Source of the DNA: an uncultured Acidimicrobiaceae bacterium
Lineage (GTDB): Bacteria; Actinomycetota; Acidimicrobiia; Acidimicrobiales; RAAP-2
Direction of reading: 5' to 3'
DNA: 64,000 bases
Assembly (NCBI GenBank): GCA_963724865.1
Contig: CAVRWO010000005.1
Coordinates: 197,885-261,884, forward strand
Numbering within the stretch: position 1 is the stretch's first letter; each line of letters begins with the position of its first letter. This document shows, piece by piece, positions 35,745 to 51,987 of the stretch. A model generated the notes under the pieces. It was not told the origin of the DNA and ran no database searches. It saw nothing but the letters and a program-made list of their open reading frames with translations. The position numbers and the translations under genes are program-made.

Positions 35745-35746
35745 GC

Positions 35747-36238: not shown

Positions 36239-36324
36239 CAGCTTGTCGAATCAGTCAGTGACGCGAGAGCGTGTCGAGACCTTTGTCGCCTCACGGCAGA
36301 TTGTGAGCGGGAAGTGGCGATCGT

Positions 36325-36687
36325 TCATTCCGGACCGACTAGGTCTTCGAAGGTCTGGCGAGCGCGTCCCAGCGTGGAGCGAAGGACTGCACGCGCCGCC
36401 GATAAGAACTCTCCGACGGAAGAGTCCGTAACCCGGTACGTCACGGCGTTGCCTCGTCGATTTGATTCGATTAGTCCTGTGCGCTTGAGCACGTTGAGGT
36501 GTTGAGAGAGCGACGACGGTTCGAGTTGCGTCTCGCGCAGCAGGCTGCTAACGGTCTGCTCATCGGCGACGAGCAACTCAAGCAACCGGATTCTTGCTGG
36601 GTGCCCGAGCGACTTGAACAACTCGGCTTTCGCGACGTACAGGGGCTTGGTGGAGTTCTCTTCAGTCACACTAATAACTATATTCAT
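36325..36687 (-). CDS. ArsR/SmtB-family regulator (Rv0081-like) heading the ehr operon
   Basis: KPLYVAKAELFKSLGHPARIRLLELL..SSLSQHLNVLKRTGLI. Confidence 0.88.
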   Translation of the reverse strand: MNIVISVTEENSTKPLYVAKAELFKSLGHPARIRLLELLVADEQTVSSLLRETQLEPSSLSQHLNVLKRTGLIESNRRGNAVTYRVTDSSVGEFLSAARAVLRSTLGRARQTFEDLVGPE

Positions 36688-36829: not shown

Positions 36830-38326
36830 TCAGTGATCGATGCCAGCGATGTTGAGGTACTTCACCTCGAGCCACTCTTCGATGCCGTACCGCGAACCCT
36901 CGCGGCCGATGCCGGACTCCTTCACCCCGCCGAAGGGCACGACCTCCGAGGAGATGACGCCGGTATTGATGCCAACGATGCCGACGTCGAGTGCTTCGGC
37001 AACGCGCCAGACTCGACCGATGTCACGGGAGTAGAAGTAGGCGGACAGGCCGTAGGGGGTGTCATTCGCCAGGCGAACGGCCTCGGCCTCGTCGCTGAAG
37101 CGGATGATTCCCGCGACGGGGCCGAACGTCTCCTCACAGGACATGGTCGCGTCGGTCGTCACGTCCGCGATCACTGTTGGTTGGAAGAACGTGCCACCAA
37201 GTGGGTGTGGCTTCCCACCGGTGACGATCGTGGCGCCCCGCTGGACCGCGTCGGACACGTGGCGAACAACCTTCTCGAAGCCCTGCTCATCGATGAGCGG
37301 CCCCACGGCGACGCCGTCTTCGAAGCCCGACGCGACCTTCAGCCCGGCCGCTCGCTCGGCCAGTTCGGTGACGAAACGGTCGTAGAGGGAGTCTTGGACA
37401 AAGATTCGGTTGGCCGTGATGCACGTTTGGCCGCTGTTGCGGAACTTGTTGACGACGACGCCGTCAAGGGCCGCGTCGAAATCCGCATCATCGAAGACGA
37501 TGAACGGTGCGTTGCCCCCGAGCTCGAGGGAGATCTTCTTGATGCCCGTAGCGCACTGGGCCATGAGCAGGCGTCCGACAGCGGTGGACCCGGTGAAGCC
37601 GACCTTGCGAACCACAGGACTACCCGTGAGCTCCGCGCCGACTGCGGGCGCGCCGTCGCCCGAGGCGGTCACCAGGTTGAAGACGCCCGCCGGCAGTCCG
37701 GCGCGATCGGCGAGCTCGCACAGCGCCAGCGCCGACAGTGGGGTCTGTTCGGCGGGCTTGCACACCATGGTGCAACCCGCGGCTAACGCAGGTGCCGCTT
37801 TACGGGTGATCATCGCAGAAGGGAAGTTCCACGGCGTGATCCCGCCGGTGACGCCGATGGGCTGCTTCAAGACGACGAGGCGGCGATCCGAGGCGTAGGT
37901 AGGTATCGTGTCGCCGTACACGCGCTTGGCCTCCTCGCCGAACCACTCGAGGAACGACGCAGCGTAGGCGATCTCCGCTCGGGACTCGGCGAGCGGCTTG
38001 CCCTGCTCGGCAGTAAGGATCGCTGCGAGGTCCTCAGTGTTCTCGAGCACCAGATCGGCCCAGCGGCGAAGGACGCGGGCGCGGTCCTTTGCGAGGCGCG
38101 ACGCCCACAGAGCGAGTGCGTCATCGGCGCACGCGATGGCCTCACGGGTCTCCTCTGCACCCATGGCCGGCACGTGGGCGAGGACCGTGCCGGTCGCGGG
38201 GTCGTTCACCGCAAAGGTGTCCCCGCTCCTCGCGCTCTGCCACTTCCCCCCAATGTACGCCTCGGCGCGCAGGAGACTCGGGTCGCGCAGTCGGACTGGA
38301 AGGTTGGCTTGCTCAGGTTGGCGCAT
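36830..38326 (-). CDS. gabD: NAD(P)-dependent succinate-semialdehyde dehydrogenase
   Basis: ITPWNFP, KPAEQTP, GFTGSTAVG, LELGGNAP, NSGQTC, EETFGPV, FGGVKESGIGREG. Confidence 0.85.
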   Translation of the reverse strand: MRQPEQANLPVRLRDPSLLRAEAYIGGKWQSARSGDTFAVNDPATGTVLAHVPAMGAEETREAIACADDALALWASRLAKDRARVLRRWADLVLENTEDLAAILTAEQGKPLAESRAEIAYAASFLEWFGEEAKRVYGDTIPTYASDRRLVVLKQPIGVTGGITPWNFPSAMITRKAAPALAAGCTMVCKPAEQTPLSALALCELADRAGLPAGVFNLVTASGDGAPAVGAELTGSPVVRKVGFTGSTAVGRLLMAQCATGIKKISLELGGNAPFIVFDDADFDAALDGVVVNKFRNSGQTCITANRIFVQDSLYDRFVTELAERAAGLKVASGFEDGVAVGPLIDEQGFEKVVRHVSDAVQRGATIVTGGKPHPLGGTFFQPTVIADVTTDATMSCEETFGPVAGIIRFSDEAEAVRLANDTPYGLSAYFYSRDIGRVWRVAEALDVGIVGINTGVISSEVVPFGGVKESGIGREGSRYGIEEWLEVKYLNIAGIDH

Positions 38327-38375
38327 CGCCCTCCTCATACGGCCGCGGATTCAGTGGCGTCCTCATCTCGACCAG

Positions 38376-40055
38376 TTAGACGGGGAGTCGTACCGACGGG
38401 GTCAACTGGTCGGGGTCGACCAGCAGCTCGATGAGCGCGGGCCGGTTCGTTGCGCGAGCCCGTTCGAACGCGGCGGGAAAATCTCGAGTCGCCGTCACCG
38501 TCTCTGCGTAGGCGCCGTAGGCGCGCGCGAGCGCCGCGAAGTCCGGGGTGACGAGGTCGGTCGCGAAGACTCGGCCGGGGTAGCGCCGCTCCTGGTGCAG
38601 GCGGATGGTGCCGTACATGTGATTGTTGACGACGATCACGATGACGTTGAGGTCCTCTTGGACCGCGGTGGCGAGCTCCTGGCCCGACATGAGAAAGCAG
38701 CCATCGCCGGCGAAGGCGACGACCTCACGCTCGGGATGGAGCACCTTTGCGGCGAGCGCCGCCGGCAGTCCGTAACCCATCGAGCCACCGGTGGGAGCGA
38801 GCTGCGTGCGGAACTGGCGGAAGGTGACGTAGCGGTGTATCCACGTCGTGTAGTTGCCGGCCCCGTTCGTGACGATCGCGTCGTCGCCGATGAGACTCCG
38901 CAGCTCGCTGGTCACGACCGCCAGATCGACGTGGCGCTCGTCGTTGATCGCTTCGACGGCACGCCAGTCGAGGTAGTCCTGCCGTCCCTTGTCGACCCAG
39001 TCGGACCACGGGTTCGTCACCAGAGGCTCTAATGCCGCGAGCGCTTCGACGAATGCGGGGATGGCGGCCGTGACGCCGAGCGTCGGGCGAAAGACCCGGC
39101 CGATCTCCTCGGCACCTTGGTGCACGTGAACGAGCGCTTGGTGGGGCGCCGGCGAAAGGATTCGCTGGTAGGCGCCGGTGGTGATGTCGTCGAGACGAGG
39201 ACCGAGGGCAACGAGCAGGTCCGCCTCGGCGAGCCGCGAGGCGAGCGCCGGGCTGACGCCCATGCCGACGTCGCCGATGTAGGTCGCGAGCGTGTTGTCG
39301 TACGCGTCCTGGTAGCGAAAGACCGTCGCCACCGCAGCCTGATTGGCCTCGGCAAAGCGCGCCAACGATTCCGACGCCTGGGCCGTCCATCCGGCGCCGC
39401 CCGCGAGGATGAGCGGACGCTCCGCGACGGCGAGCAGGTCACGTACACGCTCTACGGTGTCGAGCGACGCGACGGCGTCGGCGCGCTCAAACGGAGCGAG
39501 CACGGAAGCCGTGGTCGAATCTCGCAGGACGTCCTCGGGCAGTCCGAGCACCACCGGTCCGGGACGACCGCTCGTCGCGGTCGCAAAGGCCCGGCTCAGG
39601 AACTCAGGAATTCGATCGGCGTCGTCCACGTCGGCCGCCCACTTTGCGATCGAACCGAAGGTGGCATGGATATCTATCTCCTGGAACGTCTCTCTTCCGC
39701 GGACCGAGCGAGCGACCTGTCCCACCAAGAGGAGGAGGGGCGTCGAGCCCTGCATTGCCATGTGCACGCCGTTGGCGGCATGCAGCGCCCCCGGTCCCCG
39801 GCTCACCAGACAGACGCCCGGCAGGCCAGACAGCTTTCCTGCCGCGTCGGCCATGAAGGCAGCTGCGCCCTCGTGGCGAGCCGTCACGAAGCGAATGACG
39901 TCCTGGCGATCGCGCAGCGCGTCGAGCATCGGCAGGAAGCTCTCGCCCGGCACACCGAAGACGGCGGTGACGCCGAGCGCCGCCAGCTGGTCGACGAGCA
40001 GGCGTCCCCCGGTGCTGGTCGAGGGCGCCACCGCGTCGGGGCTCGGGCAGGTCAC
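38376..40055 (-). CDS. ThDP-dependent enzyme (acetolactate-synthase-like family)
   Basis: FGVPGES, RHEGAAAFMA, GPGALH, GSMGYG, GDGCFLM..NNHMYG ThDP motif. Confidence 0.9.
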   Translation of the reverse strand: MTCPSPDAVAPSTSTGGRLLVDQLAALGVTAVFGVPGESFLPMLDALRDRQDVIRFVTARHEGAAAFMADAAGKLSGLPGVCLVSRGPGALHAANGVHMAMQGSTPLLLLVGQVARSVRGRETFQEIDIHATFGSIAKWAADVDDADRIPEFLSRAFATATSGRPGPVVLGLPEDVLRDSTTASVLAPFERADAVASLDTVERVRDLLAVAERPLILAGGAGWTAQASESLARFAEANQAAVATVFRYQDAYDNTLATYIGDVGMGVSPALASRLAEADLLVALGPRLDDITTGAYQRILSPAPHQALVHVHQGAEEIGRVFRPTLGVTAAIPAFVEALAALEPLVTNPWSDWVDKGRQDYLDWRAVEAINDERHVDLAVVTSELRSLIGDDAIVTNGAGNYTTWIHRYVTFRQFRTQLAPTGGSMGYGLPAALAAKVLHPEREVVAFAGDGCFLMSGQELATAVQEDLNVIVIVVNNHMYGTIRLHQERRYPGRVFATDLVTPDFAALARAYGAYAETVTATRDFPAAFERARATNRPALIELLVDPDQLTPSVRLPV

Positions 40056-40726
40056 AGGCTGGTCTCCTCGTCGAGGTAGATGGTGTAGCGCTGATCCTTC
40101 GGCCGCAGTCGATCCTCCTCGTGGACATAGCTGATCGAGCTCTTTCCCTTGAACGCGACCGGTAGCACCATCACGCGCACGAAGGCAGCACCGACGTCGC
40201 GAGAGGCTTCTGCGTACACCGTCGTCGGACCGGGCTCGAACCAGGCGTCACCGGGAACGTAGTCGTGGCTCTCGCCGTTCGTCCGCACGCGCAGCGTGCC
40301 CGAGATCAGGCGACGGATACCGGGGCCTGCGTGCGTGTGCGAGTACGCGATCCCGCCTGGGGGGAAGTCGACTTGGTCACAGCGCAACAGACACGTCGGT
40401 GTGGTGATCGTGATCGCGCGCTCGAGGAGCACCGGGCCGTTCTCGCCGGTGTGCTCGTCGTTAGGTGACAGGGTCCACCACTCGATCGACGCCGCCGCGC
40501 CGCCATCGATGAGGCGCACGGGAGAGCGCTGGACCCAGGCCTCAGGCGTCTGGTGCGAGAGGGACTCGTCGCCGTCATCGGCGATGATCTTGCCGTCGCG
40601 CAGGAAGAACACCGATAGTCCGTGTTCGAAACTCATCTCGCTGCCGGGTAGGAACTCTGCGGCGCCAAGGGTCAGGCGCCAGGCGGTGGTCCCCGTCGGG
40701 TTCGCCACGGGCTGGGACCTGCTCAC
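40052..40726 (-). CDS. Cupin-domain protein
   Basis: DFPPGGIAYSHTHAGPGIRRLISG..GDAWFEPG..VYA cupin motifs; translationally coupled on both sides. Confidence 0.72.
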   Translation of the reverse strand: MSRSQPVANPTGTTAWRLTLGAAEFLPGSEMSFEHGLSVFFLRDGKIIADDGDESLSHQTPEAWVQRSPVRLIDGGAAASIEWWTLSPNDEHTGENGPVLLERAITITTPTCLLRCDQVDFPPGGIAYSHTHAGPGIRRLISGTLRVRTNGESHDYVPGDAWFEPGPTTVYAEASRDVGAAFVRVMVLPVAFKGKSSISYVHEEDRLRPKDQRYTIYLDEETSL

Positions 40727-41058
40727 GACGTCACCGCGTGGTCGTTGCCGATCGGAGAGAACGACGTCGGCACCAGGATCCGGTTTTCCTGGTGGACGAC
40801 GAACGGTCGAATGGTCGCGACGTAGTCCTGCCAGGTGGCATTCTCAAGGAGCTTGGCTCTTCGCGCCTCACGGTCCGCCAGATCGTCGTAGCCCCACAGG
40901 TGCACGATCTGGTTGAGCGTTCCAATCTCGGTAGTGAAGTAGCCGATCAAGTTCCCCAAGATCGCTCGCTGCACCTCGAGGCCGACCTCTTCGTACGCTT
41001 TGAGGTACGCGGCCGACTTGCCGGGATGGAGGGTGTACGTCCTCTCTTCAACAATCAT
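40723..41058 (-). CDS. NIPSNAP family protein
   Basis: EERTYTLHPG, GYFTTEIGTLNQIVHLWGYDDLADREARR; ATG 41058 with a GAAAGG RBS. Confidence 0.88.
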   Translation of the reverse strand: MIVEERTYTLHPGKSAAYLKAYEEVGLEVQRAILGNLIGYFTTEIGTLNQIVHLWGYDDLADREARRAKLLENATWQDYVATIRPFVVHQENRILVPTSFSPIGNDHAVTS

Positions 41059-41155
41059 TGGCGTTTGTCCTTTCAGTTGATCGGTGGCAGCACCGCAGGC
41101 GGCCAAGTAGGATTAGGCGGCTTTCGCGGCAGCCTGGATTGTGTGGAGGATTCCC

Positions 41156-42046
41156 TTGCAACTGCACCAGCTCCGCTACTTCATCGCCATCTGTGAAGAG
41201 GGCAACATGTCGCGGGCCGCGATACGGCTCTTCGTGGCCCAGCCGTCGCTGAGCGAACAGGTCCGAAAGCTGGAGCAGGAACTCGGGACGCCGCTGTTTG
41301 TCCGCCTCCCGCGTCGTCTCGTGCTGACGCCCGCCGGCGAGACCTTTCGCGTGCACGCCACGCGCATCCTCGAGGAGGTCGATCTCGTGCAATCGCATAT
41401 TGACGAGGTGTCCGCCCAGAGCGGCCAGGAGATCCGCGTGGGAGTGCTGCCCACCCTTGGGAGCCGGCTCTTTCCCACAGTAATCGCCGAGTTCCGGCGC
41501 ACCAATCCCGGCGTGCGGATCGAGCTGCGTGAAGAGAACTCCTCGCTCAGCGTGAAGCATCTGCTCAGCGAACGCGAGCTCGACGTCGGGGTCCTGCGCC
41601 TCGACGGGAAGCTGCCCTCGCATCTGGAGGCGAGCTTCTTTCTTCGTGAGCCGCTGGTCGCCCTCGTCGGGCCCGGTCACCTGCTCGCTCGCGGCGGTGA
41701 GGTGAGCCTCGAAGAGATCGCCGAAGAGCCCTTCATCACCTTGAAGGCGGGCTACGGACTTCGCGAGCTCGTCATGAACGTGCTGAAGGAAGCCGGGGTC
41801 ACGCCCAACATCACGGTGGAGGTGAGTCAGCTTGACTTCTTGATCGGCCTCGTGGAGGCGGGAATGGGGATCACCATGCTGCCCCAGCTGGCAGTCGCTC
41901 GAGAGCGTCGGGTAACCCAGCTGCAGATCAGCGACCGCCACGCGTTTCGCGAGCTGTACCTGGTGTGGCGCAAGGACATTCCGCGCGAGAGCAGGACGCC
42001 GCTGCGCACATTCATTGAGATGTTGAGAGCCAACGCCGTTCATTGA
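41156..42046 (+). CDS. LysR-family transcriptional regulator
   Basis: LHQLRYFIAICEEGNMSRAAIRLFVAQPSLSEQVRKLEQELGTPLF; TTG start after GGAGGA. Confidence 0.95.
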   Translation: MQLHQLRYFIAICEEGNMSRAAIRLFVAQPSLSEQVRKLEQELGTPLFVRLPRRLVLTPAGETFRVHATRILEEVDLVQSHIDEVSAQSGQEIRVGVLPTLGSRLFPTVIAEFRRTNPGVRIELREENSSLSVKHLLSERELDVGVLRLDGKLPSHLEASFFLREPLVALVGPGHLLARGGEVSLEEIAEEPFITLKAGYGLRELVMNVLKEAGVTPNITVEVSQLDFLIGLVEAGMGITMLPQLAVARERRVTQLQISDRHAFRELYLVWRKDIPRESRTPLRTFIEMLRANAVH

Positions 42047-42078
42047 GGCGAAGTCTAAGAAGCGTTGCACGAAGCGAC

Positions 42079-42120
42079 TAGAGGCGACTTCCCTATCAGA
42101 CCTCTAGGCGATACCTATGG
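42079..42120. promoter_or_regulatory. Conserved 42-bp motif, copy 1 (3' of lysR)
   Basis: TAGAGG-N7-CCTATCAGACCTCTAGGCGATACCTATGG. Confidence 0.7.
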
Positions 42121-42228
42121 TGGCGCTCTTTCGTCACCGCGCGCAGCGACGCCCTCCATCGCGGGAACGAAGGAGGGCGTCGTAGTGTTGGCCCTTGCGG
42201 CGGCGCGCGAGATGCTCGCGCGAAGCGA

Positions 42229-43743
42229 CTACGTGAGTTCGCCGATGGTCGACTCCTCGTCCTCGACCTCGCACGACGATCCGGTCTGACGCAACAGCGG
42301 CGACTTACGAACCACCATGACCACGAGCAGCACGATGGCGATCCCGGTAGCGGCGATGAAGGCATCGACGAAGACGTTGAGCGGGAACGACGGGTAGGGC
42401 ACGAAGCTCTTGTAGAGCAGGTACGCGAGACCAGCGACGGCGATGAGCGACGCGACGAGCACTGCGGGCGCGTTCGAACCCGCCGAACCGAAGCGCCGAC
42501 GCGCCACCATGACGATCACCGCGACGGCCGTGAGAAGGTACATGAAGATCGCACCGTCGCCGGCGACAGTACCGAAGTTGCCAAAGGCGTTGATCATGTT
42601 GGCCTTCATGGCCGCCACCAGAATGATGCTTCCACCGCACGTGAGCGCAACAACCCACACGGCCACCGAGGGCGTGCCGTGCTTGGGGTGTACGCGCGAG
42701 AGCGGGCGGGGCAGAAGTCCCTCGTTGCTCAACGTGAACAGGAGTCGCGAGCCGACGTTGAAGTACGCGATGATGACCGCGATCATTGACAAGATGATGC
42801 CGACGTCGACGACGTAGCCGTACCATCCCACATTCGAGACATTGGCCGCGGACGCGAGGAGGTTCGAGGTCGTCGTGAAGTTGAAGTGGGTTCCCTGGAA
42901 GGCCAGCACCAACACGTACGAGCAGATCGTGAAGAAGACCGCCGACACCGCCACACTGCCGATGAGGGCGACCGAGATCGTCCGTCGCGGATTGCGCGCC
43001 TCTTGGCCGAGTACGCTCGACGACTCAAAGCCCGAGTAGCAGAACATCACGAGCGGCATGCCGAGCAGGATCGCGTGCCACGATCCGCCATTGAAGGTGA
43101 GCTCGTGGCTGTTGAAGATCGAGCCGTTGTGCTTCAAGAGGATCATGAGCATCAAGACAGTGATCGCGAGCATCGAGAGCGCTTCAAGAACCAGCATGAC
43201 CCTCGCGGAGAGTTTCACGTTGTAGTAGGAGCAGTACCCGCCAAAGCCGATCCCGAGGAGGCCGATGACCAAGCCCGTGAAGTCGTTGTAGGGAATGCCG
43301 ATCGCCGGCAGCGCCAGGAAGCCTCCGAGGAACTCCGCGATCTGATACGTGACCGCTACTGCCGTTGCCATGTAGCAGACGAAGGCCATCCAGGCGATCA
43401 CGTAGCCGAACGACGCACCGCCGGCGCGAGCGGCCATGGCGTAGAGGCCACCAGACGTCTCGAACCGGCTGGTGAGCTGGGTCAGCACGTAGGCGACAAT
43501 GATCAGGACCGCGCCGCCAATGACCCAGGTAACCCAGCTGGCCGGACCCGTGAGCTCGATCACCAGCACCAAGGCTGCACCGACTGAAGCGCTCGGCGCG
43601 ATGCTGCCTACCGACTGTGCAAGGACACCGATTCCCGACAGCGCCGAGTGATGCAGCTTTTTCAGTTGGGCTGCTTCCGCGGACGATGAAGCAGCTGGTT
43701 CCTCGCCGCTTGACGTCCCCATCTCTTTCGATTCAGTTGTCAT
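42229..43743 (-). CDS. APC-family amino acid/amine permease
   Basis: AQSVGSIAP, GGLYAMA, YSGFESSSVLGQEARNPRRTI, SRLLFTLS.EGLLP..VHPKHGTP; about 12 TM; ATG 43743. Confidence 0.9.
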   Translation of the reverse strand: MTTESKEMGTSSGEEPAASSSAEAAQLKKLHHSALSGIGVLAQSVGSIAPSASVGAALVLVIELTGPASWVTWVIGGAVLIIVAYVLTQLTSRFETSGGLYAMAARAGGASFGYVIAWMAFVCYMATAVAVTYQIAEFLGGFLALPAIGIPYNDFTGLVIGLLGIGFGGYCSYYNVKLSARVMLVLEALSMLAITVLMLMILLKHNGSIFNSHELTFNGGSWHAILLGMPLVMFCYSGFESSSVLGQEARNPRRTISVALIGSVAVSAVFFTICSYVLVLAFQGTHFNFTTTSNLLASAANVSNVGWYGYVVDVGIILSMIAVIIAYFNVGSRLLFTLSNEGLLPRPLSRVHPKHGTPSVAVWVVALTCGGSIILVAAMKANMINAFGNFGTVAGDGAIFMYLLTAVAVIVMVARRRFGSAGSNAPAVLVASLIAVAGLAYLLYKSFVPYPSFPLNVFVDAFIAATGIAIVLLVVMVVRKSPLLRQTGSSCEVEDEESTIGELT

Positions 43744-43821
43744 GTTTGTCTCCCCCGTGTGTCGGTGCGCCAGTGCTCCGGTCAATTAGCGCGAAGTTTA
43801 TGAAGTTGATGCTGACGTGAA

Positions 43822-43863
43822 TAGTGGGAACCTTCCTATGTGATCTCAAGGCGATGCCTATGG
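43822..43863. promoter_or_regulatory. Conserved 42-bp motif, copy 2 (upstream of the permease)
   Basis: TAGTGG-N7-CCTATGTGATCTCAAGGCGATGCCTATGG. Confidence 0.75.
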
Positions 43864-44033
43864 TGCGATCGAGTCGTCGACGAACCCGACTGATCGCTCC
43901 TCGAAGCGGGGTTCGGACCTTCGGAAGTTGACGTCGCTGGCGACCGCGCGGACTCGCACTGGTACGCCCAGAACCCCGGCGTGGCATCGCGTCGTGACCC
44001 ACGTAGCATGCCCGCGGTCGTGGACCCGGTGCG

Positions 44034-45434
44034 TCAGGCCATCTTCAGCTCGGCCACGACCTCATCGAAGGCCTTGCGGGTGCCATCGACCATCTCGTCG
44101 ATCTCCGACTCCGTGACGATGAGAGGCGGCGAGAATGAGATTGTGTCGCCCCAGAGCGCTCGGTTGATGACGCCGTGCGCAAGGCTCGCCTTGAACACGC
44201 GAGATCCGAAGTGCACGTCAGGGTCGATGCGGGTGAGCGGCGAGCGGTCCTTCGCAAACTCGACGGCGCCGACGAGACCGCGTCCGCGAACCTCCGCCAC
44301 CAACGGGTGGTCGCCGAAGGCGTCGTGCAGCCGCTGGTTGAGGTAGAGGCCCCGAGCCGCCGCCTGCTCGACGAGATTCTCGCGCTCGATGATGGCGATG
44401 TTGGTGAGCGCGGCCGCGGCGGCGAGGGGGTGAGCGGTGTAGGTGTAGCCGTGCCCGAACACGCCATAGGTGTCGTTGCCCTGCTCGATCACTTTCCAGA
44501 TCGGCTCGGAGATGAGGCACGCCGACAACGGTACGTACGCCGACGTGATGCCCTTGGCCAACGTGATCAAGTCGGGCTGCATGCCGTAGGTCTCCGTCCC
44601 GAACAGCTTGCCGGTCCGCCCAAAGCCGCACACCACCTCGTCGGCGATCAGTAGCACGTCGTAGCGGTGCAGCACCTCGCTGATCGCATCGAAGTAGCCG
44701 TCGGGCGGCACGACGACACCGCCGACGGCCTGCATCGGTTCGGCGATGAAACCGGCCACCGTGTCAGGCCCCTCGGCGAGGATCAGCTCTTCGAGCTCGC
44801 GGGCGAGCACCGCTGAGAACTCCGCGTCGCTCATGCCCGGCTCGGCCTCCCACAAGCGGTGCGGGGCGCGCACGTGGCGAATCATCGGGAGCGGTACGTC
44901 AAAGCCGGCGTGGGCGAAATCGAGGCCGGTGAGTCCGGCTGCCATCACCGAGACGCCGTGGTAGCCGCGCTGACGGGAGATGATCTTCTTCTTCTCGGGA
45001 CGGCCGAGGATGTTGTTGTAGTACCAGATCAGCTTCACCTGCGTGTCGTTGGCGTCCGAGCCACTGCTGCCGAAGAAGACCTTGGACATCGGCACCGGGG
45101 AGAGTTCGATGAGGCGCTGGGCGAGCAGTGTCGCGACGTCGTTCGACATCGAGCTGAAGGAGTGGTAGTACGACAGACGTTCGACCTGGGCCCTCATGGT
45201 CTCGGCCATCTCGGTGTTGCCGTAGCCGATGTTGACGCACCACACCCCGGCCATCCCGTCCAGGTACCGGTTTCCGGCTGAGTCGGTCAGCCAGCAGCCC
45301 TTTCCTTCCACGATCATCAAGGGGCCGGAGGCCTCGTGGTCGCGCAGCGCGGTAAACGGGTGCAGGAGATACTGGACGTCAAGATCGTCCAGCCTCTTCT
45401 TCTCCTGGAGATTAAATGTCTCACTCGATGTCAT
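44034..45434 (-). CDS. Class III omega-amino acid:pyruvate aminotransferase (GABA:pyruvate transaminase-like)
   Basis: [58 protein letters not shown] (PLP Lys), HGYTY; ATG 45434. Confidence 0.9.
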   Translation of the reverse strand: [466 protein letters not shown]

Positions 45435-45489
45435 GTCTGCCCCTTCTTCGTCCGATGACCGGAGTCTAAGGAGCAGGTTGCGCACGAAA

Positions 45490-45531
45490 TAGAGGCATAT
45501 TGCCTATGAGAACTCAAGGCGCGGCCTCTGG
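45490..45531. promoter_or_regulatory. Conserved 42-bp motif, copy 3 (upstream of the aminotransferase)
   Basis: TAGAGG-N7-CCTATGAGAACTCAAGGCGCGGCCTCTGG. Confidence 0.72.
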
Positions 45532-45610
45532 ATCTCGGGGCGCTGCTCGCGACAGCGAGTCCTGCGGCGGCTTCGACCTCACCCAGAACCTTCCCGTCCA
45601 CGGCCGCTTT

Positions 45611-45652
45611 CAATAGGTGTCGCCTTGAGATGCAATAGGAGGAAAGCCCCTA
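45611..45652. promoter_or_regulatory. Conserved 42-bp motif, copy 4 (inverted; upstream of the Mo-hydroxylase operon)
   Basis: Reverse complement reads TAGGGG-N7-CCTATTGCATCTCAAGGCGACACCTATTG. Confidence 0.72.
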
Positions 45653-45863
45653 GTCCCTCTTGGAGACCCTGCTTATACTTCGCCCCAACCAACGCGTTCC
45701 CGCGTGCAACCAGTGCGATACATGGGAACTCGGGTAGATCGGGAGGAGACGAAGTCGTGACTCAGGTGACCTGCGGTGCACGCGGGCCGATCCGCACTCA
45801 TTGTCGGGCCTGTGACCGTGTTCTTTGGCGCGGATCGCCCTTGGTGGCGCGGGGGCTCGGCGC

Positions 45864-46709
45864 ATGAGTGTTTCGCGCTACGTCGCTCCCGACACGTTGG
45901 AGGAGATCCTCGCCGAAATCTGCGAGGAGGAGGGGAACTACGCCTTCATGGCCGGGGGCACGATCGTCCAGCCCCTGCTCACTGCGGGCAGCTGGCTGCC
46001 CCACACGGTCATCGGCCTTTGGCGCGCGCCGCTCGGGACGATCGAACGGGTGAACGGCAGCGTGGCCATTGGCGCCAACGCACGGATGCGTGACCTGGCC
46101 ATTTCGAACCTGCCCGGTGGACTCAGCGACGCGGCGCGCCAGATCGGCGGACCGGCCGTTCGCAATCGGGCGACGGTGGGCGGCAACATCGCTACGGGGC
46201 GAGGCGACCTGCTCGTCCCACTGCTCGCCCTCGACGCTCGAGTCACGTTGATGTCGCCGACTCGCACCATCGACGCGTCGATCGACGACGTGCTCGACGA
46301 AGCGACCGGCGAGGTATCAGGGCTCGCGCGAGGCGAGCTCATCACACGGATACTCGTGCCAGTAGGAGGGCGCAGCGCGTTCGTGGCGATCGGTCGAAAG
46401 GCCTACAACACACCGTGCGTCGCCACCGCCTGCGTCGTTGCGTCCTTCGACCCCGTTCGTCCTGCGGTGGTGGCGAACGTACGCGTCGCCGTCCACGGCC
46501 CCCAACCGTGGTCCGTTCGTGCGCACGCCGTCGAGCAGGTCCTCGTCGGTCACGAGCTCGACGACGCGGTGATCACCGAGGCGGTGGCGGCCCTTCGCGA
46601 CGCCGGCGACGGCTTCAGCGATTCGGTTGCGAACGCGTGGTACCGATCGACGATGAGCGGCGTCGTGCTTCGTCGGGCTCTAGAGAAGGTAGCGGGAGGA
46701 CAGGAATGA
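45864..46709 (+). CDS. Molybdenum hydroxylase FAD subunit (CoxM/XdhB-like)
   Basis: FMAGGT, QIGGPAVRNRATVGGNI; ATG 45864. Confidence 0.87.
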   Translation: MSVSRYVAPDTLEEILAEICEEEGNYAFMAGGTIVQPLLTAGSWLPHTVIGLWRAPLGTIERVNGSVAIGANARMRDLAISNLPGGLSDAARQIGGPAVRNRATVGGNIATGRGDLLVPLLALDARVTLMSPTRTIDASIDDVLDEATGEVSGLARGELITRILVPVGGRSAFVAIGRKAYNTPCVATACVVASFDPVRPAVVANVRVAVHGPQPWSVRAHAVEQVLVGHELDDAVITEAVAALRDAGDGFSDSVANAWYRSTMSGVVLRRALEKVAGGQE

Positions 46710-47212
46710 ATAGGAGCACCACCGTGACGTTCACGGTCAACGGGTACGCGGCGTCGATCATCGTCGATCCGCTCGCCAGCCTGCAGACAGTGCTGCGCGA
46801 AGAGCTGTTGCTGACGGGGACCAAGGCCGGCTGTCGCCAAGGGGGCTGTGGGAGCTGTTCGGTCCTCGTAGATGGCGAGCTCGAGCTCGCCTGTCTGATT
46901 CCGATCGCAGAGATCGCAGGACGCGACGTCGAGACCATCGAGGGGCTCAGCGCCGGCGAGTCGTTGCACCCCATCCAGACCGCGTTCGTCGAGAACTTCG
47001 CGCTGCAGTGCGGCTTTTGCACGCCAGGGATGGTGATGGCAACCAAGGCGCTGTTGGGCGAGAACACCGCTCCGACAAAGGACGAGGTGATCGAGGCACT
47101 GAGCGGCAACATCTGTCGCTGCACCGGCTACGAACCAATCGTGACGGCCGTGCTGGCGGCGGCCAACCAACTCGTCGAGTCTGACGCCGCGAGTGTGGGC
47201 GGCGCGTCGTGA
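46706..47212 (+). CDS. Molybdenum hydroxylase 2x[2Fe-2S] subunit (CoxS-like)
   Basis: GTKAGCRQGGCGSCSV..ACL, QCGFCTPG, GNICRCTGY; ATG 46706 overlaps the upstream stop. Confidence 0.92.
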   Translation: MNRSTTVTFTVNGYAASIIVDPLASLQTVLREELLLTGTKAGCRQGGCGSCSVLVDGELELACLIPIAEIAGRDVETIEGLSAGESLHPIQTAFVENFALQCGFCTPGMVMATKALLGENTAPTKDEVIEALSGNICRCTGYEPIVTAVLAAANQLVESDAASVGGAS

Positions 47213-48561
47213 GCGGCGACACCGTCCTCGTTCCTCGGGGCAACGGCCCGGTGGGGGCGTCGGTCGAGCAGGCTGACGCTCGCTCGCATGTCACCGGGCA
47301 CACCATCTACGTCGATGACGTGCAGTTACCGAGCATGGCCCACATGGTGCTCGCGCGCAGCCCCTTTCCTCACGCACTCATTCGCTGGATCGACCTGAGT
47401 GAAGCGGAGAAGGTCCCCGGGTTCATTCGCGCGCTCACCGCGCAGGATGTGCCAAAGAACATCTACACGATTCTCGGCCTGATCGGCTTCGGCCTCGACG
47501 AGGAGCGTGTCCTTGCCGACGAGCGGGTCCGCTACGTCGGCGAGCCGATCGTCGCAGTCATCGCCGAGACGAGGACCGCGGCGGCCGAGGCGGCCAGCCT
47601 CGTGCGCATCGAGTACGAGGAGTTGCCCGCGGTCTTCGACGTGGAAGAGGCGTTGGCGCCCGGCGCACCGGCGGTGACCGAGTGGGGCATCAACGCCTTT
47701 GACTTCGACGGTCGCCCGTTTCGTCAGGTCCGCTTCGGCGACGTGGACGCGGCGATGGCCCACGTCGATCATGTCGTCGAGGGCCGCTACGAGATGAGCC
47801 CGATCGAGCACGCGCCCGTGGAGACGACCGGGTGCGTCGCCCGGCCCGAACCCGACGGGCGCTTCACGGTGTGGACGAACACGCAGGCGCTCAACATGTC
47901 GCTCGACCTGACAGCCCACATCTTGCAGATCCCCACTCGCCGGCTTCACTTCATCGGCGGCACGGTGGGCGGCGGTTTCGGCGGCAAGGTTGACGCCATG
48001 GTCGAGCCGCTCGCGACGCTCGGCGCGTGGAAGATCGGCCGACCCGTCAAGTACGTCTACAGCCGCGAGGAGGAGATGGTCGTCTCGTCGACTCGAAACG
48101 GCGTGCGGATCTACATGACCGACGGCGTGACCAGCGACGGCCTGATCGTGGCGCGACGGACACGCTCCTACATCGACTGCGGCGCCTACAGCCGGCACAC
48201 GCCGTACGCGGTCCAGAAGCACGCCGCGAATCTCGCGGGCCCGTACTTCATCCCGAACGCTTCTTTTGACATCTACTGCGTGTACACCAACCGTCAGCCT
48301 TCGAGTGCGATGCGCGGCTTCGGCGTCACCGAGGCCTCCTTCGCCATGGAGATACAGATGGACCGCATCGCCGAGCTGACCGGACTGGACCCCTGGACGG
48401 TGCGCTTTCGCAACGCCTACCACGACGGCGACCTCCGTCCCCACCGCAAGCCCGTCGAGGACGCCACGCTCATTGAAGCAATGCAGGCGGCGGCGCATCT
48501 CGTGGGCTACGAGCTGAGTCCCGAGCTGCTGGCGATGTCGTCCAAGCCACGGGAGGTGTGA
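47209..48561 (+). CDS. Molybdenum hydroxylase Mo-binding subunit, N-terminal half (NdhL-like)
   Basis: VTG..IYVDD, RYVGEPI, VGGGFGGK, PSSAMRGFG. Confidence 0.88.
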   Translation: MSGDTVLVPRGNGPVGASVEQADARSHVTGHTIYVDDVQLPSMAHMVLARSPFPHALIRWIDLSEAEKVPGFIRALTAQDVPKNIYTILGLIGFGLDEERVLADERVRYVGEPIVAVIAETRTAAAEAASLVRIEYEELPAVFDVEEALAPGAPAVTEWGINAFDFDGRPFRQVRFGDVDAAMAHVDHVVEGRYEMSPIEHAPVETTGCVARPEPDGRFTVWTNTQALNMSLDLTAHILQIPTRRLHFIGGTVGGGFGGKVDAMVEPLATLGAWKIGRPVKYVYSREEEMVVSSTRNGVRIYMTDGVTSDGLIVARRTRSYIDCGAYSRHTPYAVQKHAANLAGPYFIPNASFDIYCVYTNRQPSSAMRGFGVTEASFAMEIQMDRIAELTGLDPWTVRFRNAYHDGDLRPHRKPVEDATLIEAMQAAAHLVGYELSPELLAMSSKPREV

Positions 48562-48562
48562 G

Positions 48563-49588
48563 ATGTCTAAGGTCCCTGGACGCGGCATGGCCGCGGTCAA
48601 CTACCCCACCGGCATGAACCTCGGTGGTGACCCCACCATCGCCCTCATCCACGCCTCAACGTCGGGGGTGTTCAACATCAGCATCTCGAGCGTAGAGCTC
48701 GGCCAAGGCCTCAAGACCGTGCTCGCACAGATCGGCGCCGAGGCCCTCGACGTCCCCTTCGAGTCCGTCGTGCTCCACAACGACGACACTGACACCGGTC
48801 CGTACTGCACGGGGACGTTCGCGAGCCGCACGACCCATCGCGCCGGCAATGCGATCATCGCTGCCGCCCAGGAGCTGCGCGAGGTGATGTTCGAAGAGGC
48901 CGCCGAGTTGCTCGACGCGGCGCCCGGTGACCTCGTGACCGACGGGAAGGGCAACATCCACGTTCGCGGCGCCTCCGGGCGGTCAGTCACCGTCGCGGAG
49001 GTCTGTTCGGCAGCGCACTTCGTCCACGGCCGGGCCATCGCGGGTCGGGGAATCTTCTTCAAGGCAAAGAGCCCGGTCGACCCCGACACCGGCGCCATGG
49101 ACCCCGACTCGACCGAGTCCCACGCGTGCACGATCGCCGACGTCGAAGTTGACACCGAGACGGGCCAGGTGAGCGTGCTGCGACTGGCAAGCGCCTATGA
49201 GATCGGTCGTGCCCTCAACCCTCGACTCGTCCGCGGACAGATAGTTGGCGGCGCGTGGATGGGCGTCTCGCACACGCTGTATGAGACGACGGCTCCTTAT
49301 TATCCGCTGGTCGAGCACGCGCCGACGAACTTCAGCGAATACCTCATGCCCGGCGCGGCGGAGTGCCCGGTCATCGAGGCGGAGGTCCTCGGCATCGCGT
49401 CCTCGAACGGACCGTACGGGCAAAAGGGCGTTGGAGAGATGACGGCCAACTCCCCGATCCCGGCGATCGTCAACGCGATCTACAACGCGATCGGCATCCG
49501 GTTCTACGAATTGCCCATCACACCCGAGAAGGTGCTGCGGGCACTCGAAGAAAAGCGCGCGGCCGCCGCTGCGCCCGAGGTCGTCTAG
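48563..49588 (+). CDS. Molybdenum hydroxylase Mo-binding subunit, C-terminal half (NdhM-like)
   Basis: ELGQGLKT, TFASRTT, EVDTETGQV, ALNP..GQIVGG..MG, GPYGQKGVGE. Confidence 0.88.
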   Translation: MSKVPGRGMAAVNYPTGMNLGGDPTIALIHASTSGVFNISISSVELGQGLKTVLAQIGAEALDVPFESVVLHNDDTDTGPYCTGTFASRTTHRAGNAIIAAAQELREVMFEEAAELLDAAPGDLVTDGKGNIHVRGASGRSVTVAEVCSAAHFVHGRAIAGRGIFFKAKSPVDPDTGAMDPDSTESHACTIADVEVDTETGQVSVLRLASAYEIGRALNPRLVRGQIVGGAWMGVSHTLYETTAPYYPLVEHAPTNFSEYLMPGAAECPVIEAEVLGIASSNGPYGQKGVGEMTANSPIPAIVNAIYNAIGIRFYELPITPEKVLRALEEKRAAAAAPEVV

Positions 49589-49655
49589 GTCAGCAGTTGG
49601 CCGAGGGTCGCGTCGGCTGCGATCCGCGGCCGTCGAACGAGAAAGGATCATCACC

Positions 49656-50777
49656 ATGCTTATCGGAGTGCCAAAGGAAGTGAAGACGGACGAGTACCGC
49701 GTGGCGCTCACCCCAGCGGGTGTGCGCGAGCTCGTGAGCCACGACCACGAGGTCGTGGTCGAGCACAGCGCGGGCGTCGGATCGTCAATCGGTGACGACG
49801 ACTACACGGCGGCCGGAGCAAAGATCGTCGACAGCGCCGACGACCTGTGGGCGGCGAGCGACATCGTCGTGAAAGTGAAGGAGCCCATTGCCGAGGAGTA
49901 CCCACGCCTCGCGGCGCGAGCGAACCAGATCCTCTTTACCTACCTGCATCTAGCGGCGTCGCGTCCCTGTACCGACGCCCTGTTGGTGTCGGGCAACGTC
50001 GCGATCGCCTACGAGACGGTTCGCCGCAGCGACAACTCGCTGCCCCTGCTCGCGCCGATGAGCGAGGTGGCCGGTCGGATGGCCCCGTTGATGGGCGCGC
50101 ATCACCTCATGCGCACGGGCGGCGGACGAGGAACACTCATCTGCGGCGTCCCGGGCGTCGCGCCTGCCAACGTCGTCGTGATTGGGGCGGGCGTCTCGGG
50201 CACGGCTGCTGCTTCGATCGCGCTTGGGATGCACGCCAATGTGAAGATCCTCGACAAGAATCTCGATCGGCTGAGCCAACTCGATCACCACTTCCAGGGC
50301 TCGGTGGAAACGATCGCCTCCTCGGCCCACGCCATCGAGCAGGCGTGCCGCGACGCCGACATCGTCATTGGGGCGGTCCTTGTCGTCGGAGCTCGAGCTC
50401 CCAAGCTCGTCAGCAACGATCTGGTCGCCCAGATGCGCGCTGGTTCGGTGCTCGTTGACATCGCGGTCGACCAAGGGGGCTGCTTCGAGGCGACACGCCC
50501 GACAACACACTCCGATCCAGTCTTCGAGGTCAACGGCTCGATCTTCTACTGCGTGGCGAACATGCCCGGCGCCGTTCCGACGACGTCGACGCACGCGCTC
50601 GCGAACGCGACGCTGCCCTATCTCTTGGAGCTGGCTGGACGGGGTTGGCGCGAGGCAGCCCGCCTCGATGAGGCACTCGCCGAGGGCGTAAACGTCGTCA
50701 ACGGTGCGCTCACCTACGGACCCGTCGCCGACGCGCACGGCCTCGCGCACACCGACCTGGTCACGCTGCTCTCGTGA
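49656..50777 (+). CDS. ald: Alanine dehydrogenase
   Basis: IGVPKEVKTDEYRVALTP, KVKEP, FTYLHLA, MSEVAGR, DIAVDQGGCFE, YCVANMPG. Confidence 0.95.
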   Translation: MLIGVPKEVKTDEYRVALTPAGVRELVSHDHEVVVEHSAGVGSSIGDDDYTAAGAKIVDSADDLWAASDIVVKVKEPIAEEYPRLAARANQILFTYLHLAASRPCTDALLVSGNVAIAYETVRRSDNSLPLLAPMSEVAGRMAPLMGAHHLMRTGGGRGTLICGVPGVAPANVVVIGAGVSGTAAASIALGMHANVKILDKNLDRLSQLDHHFQGSVETIASSAHAIEQACRDADIVIGAVLVVGARAPKLVSNDLVAQMRAGSVLVDIAVDQGGCFEATRPTTHSDPVFEVNGSIFYCVANMPGAVPTTSTHALANATLPYLLELAGRGWREAARLDEALAEGVNVVNGALTYGPVADAHGLAHTDLVTLLS

Positions 50778-50973: not shown

Positions 50974-51987
50974 GTGTCTGTAAAGGCGGACAGCGGGGCT
51001 GTGACGCCCACGGGAGCTGTTGCTACCGACCAACCACTCAATCGACCAACGCCCAATCGAAAGGTGAAGACGAGGTCGCCGTCGACGAACGCTCGGCGAT
51101 TTACTCGAGGGCTCTTGGAAGCGGGGCTGCTCGAAGGAAGCGGTGTGACGGGCGTTTATCATCGATCGTTCGAGTTCGAGAAGATCATTCGTGGCATCGA
51201 AACCTACGTCTCGAGCGCCGGTGGAGACGAAAAAAGGCGGCAACTGTTTTGCTCTCCGGTGATGCCTCGCTCAACACTCGCCAAGTGCGGATACTTGGCC
51301 TCCTTTCCAGATCTGGTGGGCGCCATCTCGAGTTTCACGGGGAGCGAGGCCGACCTGCCGACGTTACGGCAGCGAATTGAAGACGGGGGTGAGTGGGCCG
51401 ACTTGCTCACCGCGACCCAGGTGGCGATGTGCTCGGCGGCGTGTCAAAACGTCTATCCGCTCGTGGTCGGTACCCCAATACCGCCCCAAGGCCTCGTGTA
51501 CGAGGTTCAGGCGTATTGCTTTCGCCATGAACCGAGCGACGACCTCGCTCGAATGTTGTCGTTCAGGCAACACGAGTTCGTTTTCCTCGGCACCGAGCAC
51601 GATGCTCGTGAGCACGCTGAGCTGTGGCGCAGCCGCTTTGGCGATCTGTTGGACGGTCTTGATATCTCCTACGAGGTCGTCATAGCGAACGACCCCTTCT
51701 TTGGCCGAATGGGGCGACTGCTCGCCGAGAGTCAGCGTCAGAAGTCGCTCAAGTACGAGTTCGTTGTCCCGATTACGTCAGAAGTTCCCCACTCGATCGG
51801 TTCGGCGAACTTTCACGAGGATCACTTCGGTACGTCGTTCGGTCTGTCGATGTTCGATGGAAGCGTCGCCCACTCCTCGTGCGTCGGCTTCGGCCTCGAA
51901 CGAGTCGCGCTCGCCCTGCTCTTCAGGCACGGTGTGGATAGCGCAACATGGCCCGCACCGATCCGGAGTCTGCTCACACTCGGGTAG
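50974..51987 (+). CDS. Amino acid--[acyl-carrier-protein] ligase (atypical SerRS homolog; start uncertain)
   Basis: GYLASFPDL, SAACQNVYP, FRHEPS..RMLSFRQHEFV, ANDPFFGR, SANFHEDHFG, HSSCVGFGLER. Confidence 0.82.
   Translation: MSVKADSGAVTPTGAVATDQPLNRPTPNRKVKTRSPSTNARRFTRGLLEAGLLEGSGVTGVYHRSFEFEKIIRGIETYVSSAGGDEKRRQLFCSPVMPRSTLAKCGYLASFPDLVGAISSFTGSEADLPTLRQRIEDGGEWADLLTATQVAMCSAACQNVYPLVVGTPIPPQGLVYEVQAYCFRHEPSDDLARMLSFRQHEFVFLGTEHDAREHAELWRSRFGDLLDGLDISYEVVIANDPFFGRMGRLLAESQRQKSLKYEFVVPITSEVPHSIGSANFHEDHFGTSFGLSMFDGSVAHSSCVGFGLERVALALLFRHGVDSATWPAPIRSLLTLG

Follow-up and report, generated by a model that had tools for sequence, protein, structure and literature searches.

Several described catabolic systems share parts with the subject of this analysis, a twelve-gene island at positions 36830-50777 of a 64,000-nt stretch of DNA ("the window," whose numbering is used throughout) from an uncultured Acidimicrobiaceae bacterium (GCA_963724865.1, contig CAVRWO010000005.1, 197,885-261,884, forward strand). 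In the furoate pathway, a molybdenum (Mo) enzyme hydroxylates C5; the product then undergoes keto-enol tautomerisation twice and its lactone is opened, steps described as "spontaneous or catalysed," to give 2-oxoglutarate (PMC3223595). The nicotinate dehydrogenase of E. barkeri is encoded by four genes, NdhF/S/L/M, its molybdopterin subunit being split into pieces of ~450 and ~340 aa (PMC10331938). Cyanobacteria have a route through a thiamine diphosphate (ThDP)-dependent 2-oxoglutarate decarboxylase and a succinate-semialdehyde dehydrogenase (SSADH; sll1981 / SYNPCC7002_A2770 with A2771; PMC10418658), and in riboflavin catabolism a ThDP decarboxylase, LumK/LumL, and a xanthine-oxidase-type hydroxylase, LumJ, carry out consecutive steps of N-heterocycle breakdown (PMC12746152). 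Further points of comparison are the E. coli gabDTP genes and the taurine Tpa-Ald-Xsc route.

The island is a catabolic one built on a Mo hydroxylase, and no described pathway matches it. The first-pass annotation of this DNA had likewise known of none with this exact gene set, and closer comparison agrees: the relevant proteins fall under the cut-offs for Xsc, AruI, GabT and GabP, and the island has neither the enamidase and reductase of nicotinate fermentation nor the coenzyme A (CoA) ligase and hydratase of hmf, the furoate genes. It thus stands outside gabDTP, taurine, arginine transaminase, E. barkeri nicotinate and hmf, because each fails on a defining feature. By analogy, its nearest functional counterpart would be a furoate pathway run without CoA, linked to a pair of 2-oxoglutarate decarboxylase and SSADH and supplemented by a taurine-style deamination cycle of transaminase and alanine dehydrogenase. 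The best reading, to which we give a probability of about 0.4, is that this accessory island funnels carbon into succinate through succinate semialdehyde, and that it does so by combining a widespread enzymatic core with an added amine layer.

Genes were called from a listing of open reading frames with Pfam and NCBIfam profile scans, which found all twelve, though in a physical order unlike that of the list in the first-pass annotation. On the minus strand, a four-gene operon begins with a NIPSNAP-family protein (40723-41058; PF07978, E 5e-33) and continues with a small "bicupin" of 224 aa from an undescribed family (40052-40726; weak Cupin_2 match), an acetolactate-synthase-like ThDP enzyme of the PRK08199 family (38376-40055; 559 aa, three TPP_enzyme domains) and, last, gabD, an SSADH orthologue (36830-38338; Pfam Aldedh, E 1e-166). 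On the plus strand, a five-gene operon encodes the flavin adenine dinucleotide (FAD) subunit of the Mo hydroxylase, NdhF/CoxM-like (45864-46709; FAD_binding_5 and CO_deh_flav_C), its 2x[2Fe-2S] (FeS) subunit (46706-47212; Fer2 and Fer2_2), the NdhL-like N-terminal half of its large subunit (47209-48561; Ald_Xan_dh_C and MoCoBD_1), the NdhM-like C-terminal half (48563-49588; MoCoBD_2) and, last, alanine dehydrogenase (ald; 49656-50777; TIGR00518). Between the two operons lie a lysR-type regulator gene (41156-42046, plus strand; HTH_1 and LysR_substrate), divergent from the NIPSNAP operon across a gap of 95 bp, and, on the minus strand, genes for an APC-superfamily permease (42229-43743; AA_permease_2, E 3e-38) and a class-III omega-transaminase of amine:pyruvate type (44034-45434; Aminotran_3, E 3e-88). 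Overlaps of 4 bp at four junctions (NIPSNAP/cupin, cupin/ThDP, FAD/FeS and FeS/Mo) suggest translational coupling.

The bicupin, which has 632 relatives in metagenomes, was used to follow the island into other organisms: 80 species-representative cupin loci, from 341 matching genomes, were fetched and the window proteins scored against them, the counts below having as denominators the loci with enough flank. Relatives with 79% and 69% identical cupins have all twelve genes in unchanged order, and since the genes beyond gabD vary in each of these syntenic relatives while the block is kept, the block behaves as a discrete unit. In a more distant locus (L004, cupin 56% identical) it is rearranged but still linked: L004 has the Mo genes in split form, another aldehyde dehydrogenase, the gene run NIPSNAP-cupin-ThDP-gabD-transaminase, and XdhC and MobA-like maturation genes, and it retains the operator discussed below. 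The closest named relatives are metagenome-assembled genomes (MAGs) of Acidimicrobiales. Cluster conservation, which the first-pass annotation had proposed as a check, is confirmed.

Beyond these close relatives, the genes part into two layers. A ThDP gene (45-57% identical) lies directly downstream of the cupin in 37 of 68 loci and a NIPSNAP gene at most 2.5 kb upstream in 39 of 69; GabD (at least 55% identity) occurs within 5 kb in 19 of 55, and a large subunit of the xanthine dehydrogenase (XDH) family within 10 kb in 13 of 38, for scale against just two XDH-family enzymes in the 3.55 Mb of the window's genome. In three loci (L005, L006, L022) FAD-FeS-Mo-NIPSNAP-cupin-ThDP form a single operon. 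An independent start from the split Mo subunit leads to the same set: orthologues (42-46% identity) lie 6-8 kb from gabD-SDR-NIPSNAP-cupin-ThDP (SDR, short-chain dehydrogenase/reductase) in two other Actinomycetota families, and in one of those two genomes the island adds a Liv-type (amino-acid-type) ABC importer, an IclR regulator and CoxD/CoxE maturation genes. The first layer is thus a widespread core of NIPSNAP, bicupin and PRK08199 ThDP enzyme, which a true GabD usually accompanies and an XDH-family Mo hydroxylase often does; across carriers this hydroxylase is either split like NdhFSLM or furoyl-CoA-dehydrogenase-like. The carriers are soil and groundwater bacteria of several phyla. The second layer, the APC permease, amine:pyruvate transaminase and alanine dehydrogenase, is an addition specific to the Acidimicrobiales lineage: a transaminase of the window's type is found near the cupin in only 2 of 38 loci, both Acidimicrobiales. 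Since the amine genes accompany the core in this lineage alone, the core does not need an amine or GABA. The linear order put forward in the first-pass annotation, from uptake by way of Mo hydroxylation and cupin/ThDP cleavage to GABA and succinic semialdehyde, stays conjectural.

The island is accessory. In a sample of 400 Actinomycetota genomes, of which 1 shares the window's genus and 20 its order, 4 carry a split-type Mo orthologue (42-46% identity), and none of these 4 belongs to that genus or order; no transaminase orthologue at E <= 1e-130 was found in these 400, a threshold probably too strict to be informative. A plasmid collection contained no bicupin relative, and a literature search for this gene combination gave no relevant match. 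One idea was that entry is by the SDR in other lineages and by the transaminase in this one; it was abandoned, as some operons have neither and the SDR co-occurs with Mo genes. A separate kind of context is seen in four Burkholderiales loci (L040, L048, L059, L080), where the NIPSNAP-bicupin-ThDP core stands beside a gamma-glutamyltranspeptidase, a Cys/Met-type pyridoxal phosphate-dependent lyase or a CoA-binding-domain gene; no locus has all three neighbor types, and the context is quite unlike the Mo-hydroxylase ones.

The twelve genes are also tied together by a shared operator. Repeat search and alignment showed that it is 52 nt long and present four times, with 25 positions invariant among the copies; each copy contains an ATAG-N11-CTAT box followed by CTCAAGGCG-N3-CCT; T-N11-A is the classical LysR-type box. 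A scan of the entire 3.55-Mb assembly, tolerating up to 6 mismatches over the 25 invariant positions, returned these four copies and no others, so that the operator is private to the island. Copy 2 (43814-43865, minus strand) ends 70 bp ahead of the permease start, copy 3 (45482-45533, minus) 47 bp ahead of the transaminase start, and copy 4 (45609-45660, plus) lies inverted ~200 bp ahead of the operon of the Mo hydroxylase and ald. The shared upstream motif reported in the first-pass annotation therefore stands for these three transcription units, but the NIPSNAP operon lacks one where it would ordinarily lie. The 95 bp separating lysR from NIPSNAP contain conserved blocks without an operator copy, and copy 1 (42071-42122, minus) is instead found 25 bp beyond the lysR stop, pointing toward lysR and the NIPSNAP operon. 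All four copies are at matching places in relatives L001, L002/L010, L008 and L009.

The rearranged locus L004 helps in interpreting copy 1. There, operator copies lie 70 bp upstream of NIPSNAP (L004:4746-4797) and 48 bp upstream of the transaminase, with no lysR between or nearby; because the operator directly precedes NIPSNAP-cupin-ThDP-gabD and the transaminase, the NIPSNAP operon belongs to the same regulon, and in the window's lineage the regulator gene, on the opposite strand, therefore separates that operon from its operator. Induced transcription from copy 1 may run antisense through lysR, or lysR may have inserted into the leader. A 340-codon open frame antisense to lysR (41048-42070, minus strand) starts right at copy 1 and coincides with this putative antisense transcript; it is probably a high-GC shadow, since the lysR domain matches are strong. 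Between copy 1 and the permease 3' end stands a G+C-rich hairpin following the permease stop (42148-42181), probably a terminator: the fold of 42118-42232 has an energy of -58.5 kcal/mol (z = -3.3; 0 of 200 shuffles as stable). A scan for consensus promoters and terminators gave hits no more frequent than chance. The island is probably LysR-controlled, and from the T-N11-A form and the position of the copies we infer that this LysR, for which no NCBIfam equivalog reaches its cut-off, would be the protein that binds them.

One could suppose that unrelated operons have simply come to lie side by side with no common pathway; each of the component families is common in its own right, and ThDP enzymes of this family turn up in many kinds of surroundings. 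The privacy and conservation of the operator, a linkage that survives rearrangement and crosses phyla, and the retention of the block while its flanks differ make such chance juxtaposition very improbable, and they uphold the earlier claim of one conserved, co-regulated catabolic unit.

The most secure point in the chemistry is its end. The aldehyde dehydrogenase passes the SSADH model TIGR01780 (687 bits vs a cut-off of 646) and aligns end to end with E. coli GabD (3jz4; 676.7 bits); it is the sole SSADH orthologue in the genome, the next-best paralogue being 40% identical. By these matches it is a true GabD, and of the reactions predicted for the island only one is well supported, the oxidation of succinate (or perhaps glutarate) semialdehyde to the corresponding diacid. 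The final step from succinic semialdehyde to succinate foreseen in the first-pass annotation is thus borne out by the match to the E. coli enzyme (677 bits) and by the absence of any other such gene in this genome. E. coli-type GabD also oxidises glutarate semialdehyde.

At the other end of the presumed core route, the Mo hydroxylase has the gene order FAD, FeS, MoCoBD_1, MoCoBD_2, which is the four-gene NdhF/S/L/M layout, and the earlier description of a four-subunit enzyme was accurate. The top PDB match of the N-terminal half of the large subunit is E. barkeri nicotinate dehydrogenase NdhL (3hrd_A, 214.8 bits) and that of the C-terminal half is NdhM (3hrd_B, 165 bits); the KGVGE motif aligns, and the catalytic Glu (in GVGE) is kept in the NdhM-like subunit. 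The split is kept in L001, L002, L004 and L009 and in genomes G145 and G164. For the FAD and FeS subunits, the best NCBIfam matches include archaeal glyceraldehyde dehydrogenase. The genome's one other XDH-family enzyme (G000:C20:535752-541888) lies beside the only XdhC genes; the island enzyme has no maturation gene alongside, unlike those of L004 (XdhC, MobA-like) and G164 (CoxD, CoxE).

One possibility raised by this enzyme is a pyridine-carboxylate route, in which nicotinate or picolinate would be converted to the 6-hydroxy acid, the ring reduced and opened to 2-oxoadipate or 2-formylglutarate, and the ThDP enzyme and GabD would carry the product to glutarate via glutarate semialdehyde. 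Architecture and gene order are those of E. barkeri ndhF-S-L-M (PMC10331938), NdhL and NdhM are the top PDB matches, and some genomes have a gene of the isochorismatase family (PncA/NicF-like) close to the core; the breadth of E. coli-type GabD would accommodate the last step. The similarity to the E. barkeri enzyme is moderate, however, with modest identity at 215 and 165 bits. Neither 6-hydroxynicotinate reductase, enamidase nor the 2-methyleneglutarate branch was found among the twelve genes or immediate flanks, which contain no amidohydrolase, flavin/FeS reductase or B12 mutase, and the Pfam and NCBIfam scans found no NicC or NicX-type gene in or near the cluster. With the transaminase and alanine dehydrogenase left without a role as well, a pyridine-carboxylate substrate seems improbable.

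Chemical clues from other carriers point instead toward furoate-type reactions. In three Burkholderiales MAGs (L011:9917-20555, L013, L021) the bicupin stands directly before genes for AraC, a Mo hydroxylase, a CoA ligase, UbiD and an NMT1-like binding protein, there without a ThDP or NIPSNAP gene. In an uncultured actinomycete (L075), genes in the hmfABCDE order (Mo large subunit, FAD, FeS, CoA ligase, enoyl-CoA hydratase) lie ~5 kb from the core. In the cultured Bordetella bronchialis (L135:1-9674), a complete hmfABC-D-F-G-E-like operon, encoding a Mo large subunit fused to a COXG domain, FAD and FeS subunits, CoA ligase, UbiD, UbiX and enoyl-CoA hydratase, is followed by genes for a flavin mononucleotide (FMN)-dependent 2-hydroxyacid dehydrogenase and a 54% identical PRK08199-type ThDP enzyme, two enzymes that lie outside the described hmf pathway. 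Another cultured carrier, Microbaculum marinum KCTC 52363, has Mo hydroxylase, gabD, NIPSNAP and bicupin genes. In some Thermoleophilia, a RidA-family protein and an isochorismatase-type amidase flank the core; in the Rut and aminophenol pathways, such a pair converts the enamides left by ring opening to 2-oxo or aldehyde acids.

Taken together, the hmf-like neighbors, the steps of furoate degradation, the RidA/amidase flanks and the cyanobacterial decarboxylase/SSADH route suggest a four-step model for the core. The Mo enzyme would take a small heterocyclic carboxylate or cyclic imine that resembles an amino acid and hydroxylate the carbon beside the heteroatom, as furoyl-CoA dehydrogenase does with furoyl-CoA, but acting here on the free acid. 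NIPSNAP and the bicupin would then bring about enol/keto tautomerisation and ring opening to a 2-oxo-dicarboxylate (2-oxoglutarate or a close analogue), the ThDP enzyme would decarboxylate this to succinate semialdehyde, and GabD would oxidise the semialdehyde to succinate. As proposed, the sequence resembles the furoate (Trudgill) pathway of Cupriavidus basilensis (hmfABCDE) in its Mo hydroxylation beside a heteroatom, tautomerisation, ring opening and 2-oxo-C5 diacid, and bicupin and ThDP relatives stand in or beside hmf-like operons. It differs in that the island has no AMP-binding (furoyl-CoA synthetase) or ECH (2-oxoglutaroyl-CoA hydrolase) gene and its Mo enzyme is of the split type, ~31% identical to hmf-like large subunits, and in that no NIPSNAP, bicupin, ThDP enzyme or GabD is assigned in the known hmf pathway. 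A more specific version of the model, in which the core and a free-acid NdhFSLM-type Mo hydroxylase form an undescribed CoA-independent route that yields succinate from cyclic imines or from the 2-carboxylates of five-membered heterocycles (furoate, pyrrole-2-carboxylate and pyrroline-carboxylate being the types in question), is unlikely enough to be put forward only tentatively.

For the third step the ThDP enzyme itself offers less guidance. It passes NF006052 (PRK08199; 778.9 bits vs 539), and fails the models for Xsc (NF005713; 255.7 vs 620) and the 5-guanidino-2-oxopentanoate decarboxylase AruI (NF005712; 244.4 vs 500). Its best PDB matches, BbmA and acetohydroxyacid synthase (AHAS), reach at most 235 bits, so that no solved enzyme is closer to it than are acetohydroxyacid synthases in general, and the literature on BbmA/CsmA offered nothing useful. 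Thousands of relatives at ~55% identity have only the public names "thiamine pyrophosphate-binding protein" or "acetolactate synthase large subunit," and the PRK08199 cut-off was passed in 0 of 14 control genomes, Synechococcus elongatus included. Assignments as Xsc, AruI, IolD-type or Gcl for this enzyme, like those of GabT and GabP for other island proteins, were rejected on curated hidden Markov model cut-offs. The cyanobacterial bypass likewise pairs an acetolactate-synthase-like ThDP enzyme with an SSADH, a likeness that here consists of gabD adjacency only; unlike it, the island is accessory and presumably inducible, includes NIPSNAP and bicupin, and belongs to a genome with 2-oxoglutarate dehydrogenase. 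Because the genome has a normal E1 component of that dehydrogenase, the ThDP enzyme and GabD were not taken to serve mainly as a bypass of the tricarboxylic acid cycle. LumK/LumL differs in being a split, two-subunit decarboxylase annotated as thiamin-pyrophosphate-binding, where the island enzyme is single-chain and AHAS-like; riboflavin catabolism (LumK/L, LumJ and the cupin LumY) was rejected as the identity of the island, given the split ThDP enzyme and the different pathway, and serves as an analogy only.

The bicupin matches no NCBIfam model. Its AlphaFold (AF2) model (pLDDT 92) has two barrels, with AerE and BacB as the best same-size fold matches (TM about 0.6), and its one sequence-level PDB match is KdgF (E 4e-4). 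BacB and AerE are 2-oxo acid isomerases. Residues invariant in the alignment of its relatives include R115, D117, H130, H132, R138, E164, R184 and K210. A full cupin metal site (HxH...E in motif 1, H in motif 2) is missing: motif 1 of the C-terminal barrel keeps H130 and H132, the Glu position is I or R and the motif-2 His is replaced, although the invariant E164 could, to judge from the alignment, be a third metal ligand. The protein therefore resembles isomerases or tautomerases more closely than dioxygenases that cleave rings, which speaks against the cupin cleavage invoked in the first-pass annotation. YlbA-type bicupin fold matches also prompted a purine/allantoin reading (XDH, AllE-like bicupin, Gcl-like ThDP enzyme), rejected because there are no uricase, allantoinase or allantoate genes and the similarity to Gcl is low.

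The core might also have a different use. IolD and cyclohexane-1,2-dione hydrolase are ThDP enzymes that cleave 1,2-dicarbonyls or acyloins, and the island enzyme might likewise be a C-C lyase or hydrolase on such a compound, with NIPSNAP and the bicupin as ketol isomerases and the Mo enzyme as an aldehyde oxidoreductase: an open-chain or alicyclic amino/hydroxy-keto acid (e.g., of 5-aminolevulinate/4,5-dioxovalerate type) would give succinate semialdehyde and a C1/C2 fragment. NIPSNAP has an LsrG-like fold and the bicupin an IolB/KduI/BacB-like one; an SDR lies between the NIPSNAP and bicupin genes in 28 loci, and in Thermoleophilia lactonase, zinc-dependent alcohol dehydrogenase, HIBADH-type and xylose-isomerase-type genes flank the core, a pattern that resembles the ThDP, cupin and aldehyde dehydrogenase logic of inositol catabolism. 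The KdgF match and the archaeal glyceraldehyde dehydrogenase among the best NCBIfam matches of the FAD and FeS subunits fit here as well. Set against these are the absence of IolD-type models from the top NCBIfam matches of the ThDP enzyme, a Mo large subunit closest to a heterocycle hydroxylase, the repeated position of the core near hmf-like heteroaromatic clusters, and RidA and amidase neighbors that point to N-containing ring-opened intermediates, so that lyase chemistry of this kind appears quite unlikely.

In the second layer, the permease would import an amine or omega-amino acid, the transaminase would hand its amino group to pyruvate, and alanine dehydrogenase would regenerate pyruvate and free ammonium; the carbonyl product would be either a precursor of the Mo-enzyme substrate or a direct entry at the semialdehyde node. 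The transaminase passes PRK06105 (591.6 bits vs 517), fails the model for 2-oxoglutarate-dependent GabT (TIGR00700; 190 vs 506.65), and has as best PDB matches omega-transaminases that include putrescine/polyamine:pyruvate transaminases and the plant GABA:pyruvate enzyme POP2 (E 1e-114). The alanine dehydrogenase passes TIGR00518 (515.8 bits vs 391.85), and the earlier pairing of a pyruvate-accepting transaminase with Ald is well founded, an enzyme of the amine:pyruvate omega-transaminase group and a TIGR00518 alanine dehydrogenase being present in the same island. A second cluster of transaminase, aldehyde dehydrogenase and alanine dehydrogenase genes, the last 76% identical to the island's, is located at G000:C31:308065-312780, so that this genome uses a pyruvate-recycling deamination design at least twice. 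For the permease no characterised subfamily fits: the best NCBIfam match (126 bits) is far under its cut-off, and the GABA permease model GabP (TIGR01773) scores 34.1 bits vs 678.

Like E. coli gabDTP, then, the island brings a GabD orthologue, a class-III transaminase and an APC-superfamily permease into one regulon, but its transaminase is of pyruvate type rather than GabT, its permease is not GabP, and GabT is located elsewhere (G000:C5:517395-518636; 573.6 bits, above cut-off), ~275 kb from the island, which argues mildly against GABA itself as the amine. With the taurine Tpa-Ald-Xsc route it shares an amine:pyruvate transaminase and an alanine dehydrogenase (at family level only) and a ThDP enzyme in the same cluster; it differs in that this enzyme is not Xsc and the cluster has no phosphotransacetylase or sulfite exporter.

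How the two layers join can be seen in two ways. A transaminase acting upstream of the Mo enzyme, with one imported amine as sole substrate, would agree with there being a single permease and with ald lying within the Mo operon; a transaminase acting in parallel to the core on a GABA-type omega-amino acid, with GabD alone shared, fits its absence elsewhere and the gabD-transaminase order in L004. Carried to its conclusion, the latter arrangement becomes two independent branches: the amine genes would be a GABA/5-aminovalerate-type set, the core would degrade an unrelated compound to succinate semialdehyde, and both would be co-regulated because the regulator senses the common semialdehyde. The confinement of the amine genes to this lineage, the position of gabD directly before the transaminase in L004, as in gabD-gabT, the POP2 match and the status of the island gabD as the genome's only SSADH orthologue are what one would expect of such branches. 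The canonical GabT elsewhere in the genome and the low GabP score of the permease argue the other way, as do the transcription of ald with the Mo genes rather than with the transaminase, the single transporter, which fits one imported substrate, and the fact that in L004 and L009 the transaminase has remained linked to the core despite rearrangement; full independence of the branches is somewhat unlikely.

Several points weigh against the preferred reading, a core and amine layer jointly feeding succinate. No one amine could be named that would use all twelve genes in line. The hmf parallel is by analogy only, because the island has no CoA ligase or hydratase, and with a normal 2-oxoglutarate dehydrogenase E1 in the genome plain 2-oxoglutarate decarboxylation would be wasteful, so that the acid actually decarboxylated may be an analogue. 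PRK08199 is a very large family with members in unrelated contexts as well, e.g., in Paraburkholderia beside serine dehydratase and glycine-cleavage genes, and L004 carries the operator yet has no lysR nearby. To our knowledge, moreover, neither bacterial NIPSNAP, the bicupin family nor the very large PRK08199 group has a known biochemical function, or any member with known activity in the families used here; for this reason we infer every step ahead of GabD, including the ThDP reaction, the roles of NIPSNAP and bicupin and the substrate class.

Neither flank of the island is retained beside it in relatives. One (29218-36687) contains arsR and genes for Complex-I/hydrogenase-like membrane subunits, and the other (50974-51987) a stand-alone amino acid-[acyl-carrier-protein] ligase homologue that scores just below the NF005479 cut-off (343 bits vs 357).

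Of secondary, regulatory interest is a private, conserved operator with one copy placed behind the regulator gene and facing back through it. The larger significance lies in the NIPSNAP-bicupin-ThDP trio, which is widespread and uncharacterised and for which there is now a concrete hypothesis; because this tightly linked set adjoins GabD, with its confidently predicted product, and often Mo hydroxylases, the function of its members is directly testable. If the CoA-independent route is real, it would provide the first catalytic roles for bacterial NIPSNAP and the bicupin family, as tautomerase and ring opener, and a catabolic ThDP-dependent 2-oxo-dicarboxylate decarboxylase in over 300 species. 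The trio could supply enzymes for the tautomerisation and ring opening that have none assigned in furoate-type pathways, or could reveal a new form of N-heterocycle or amine breakdown in uncultured Actinomycetota.

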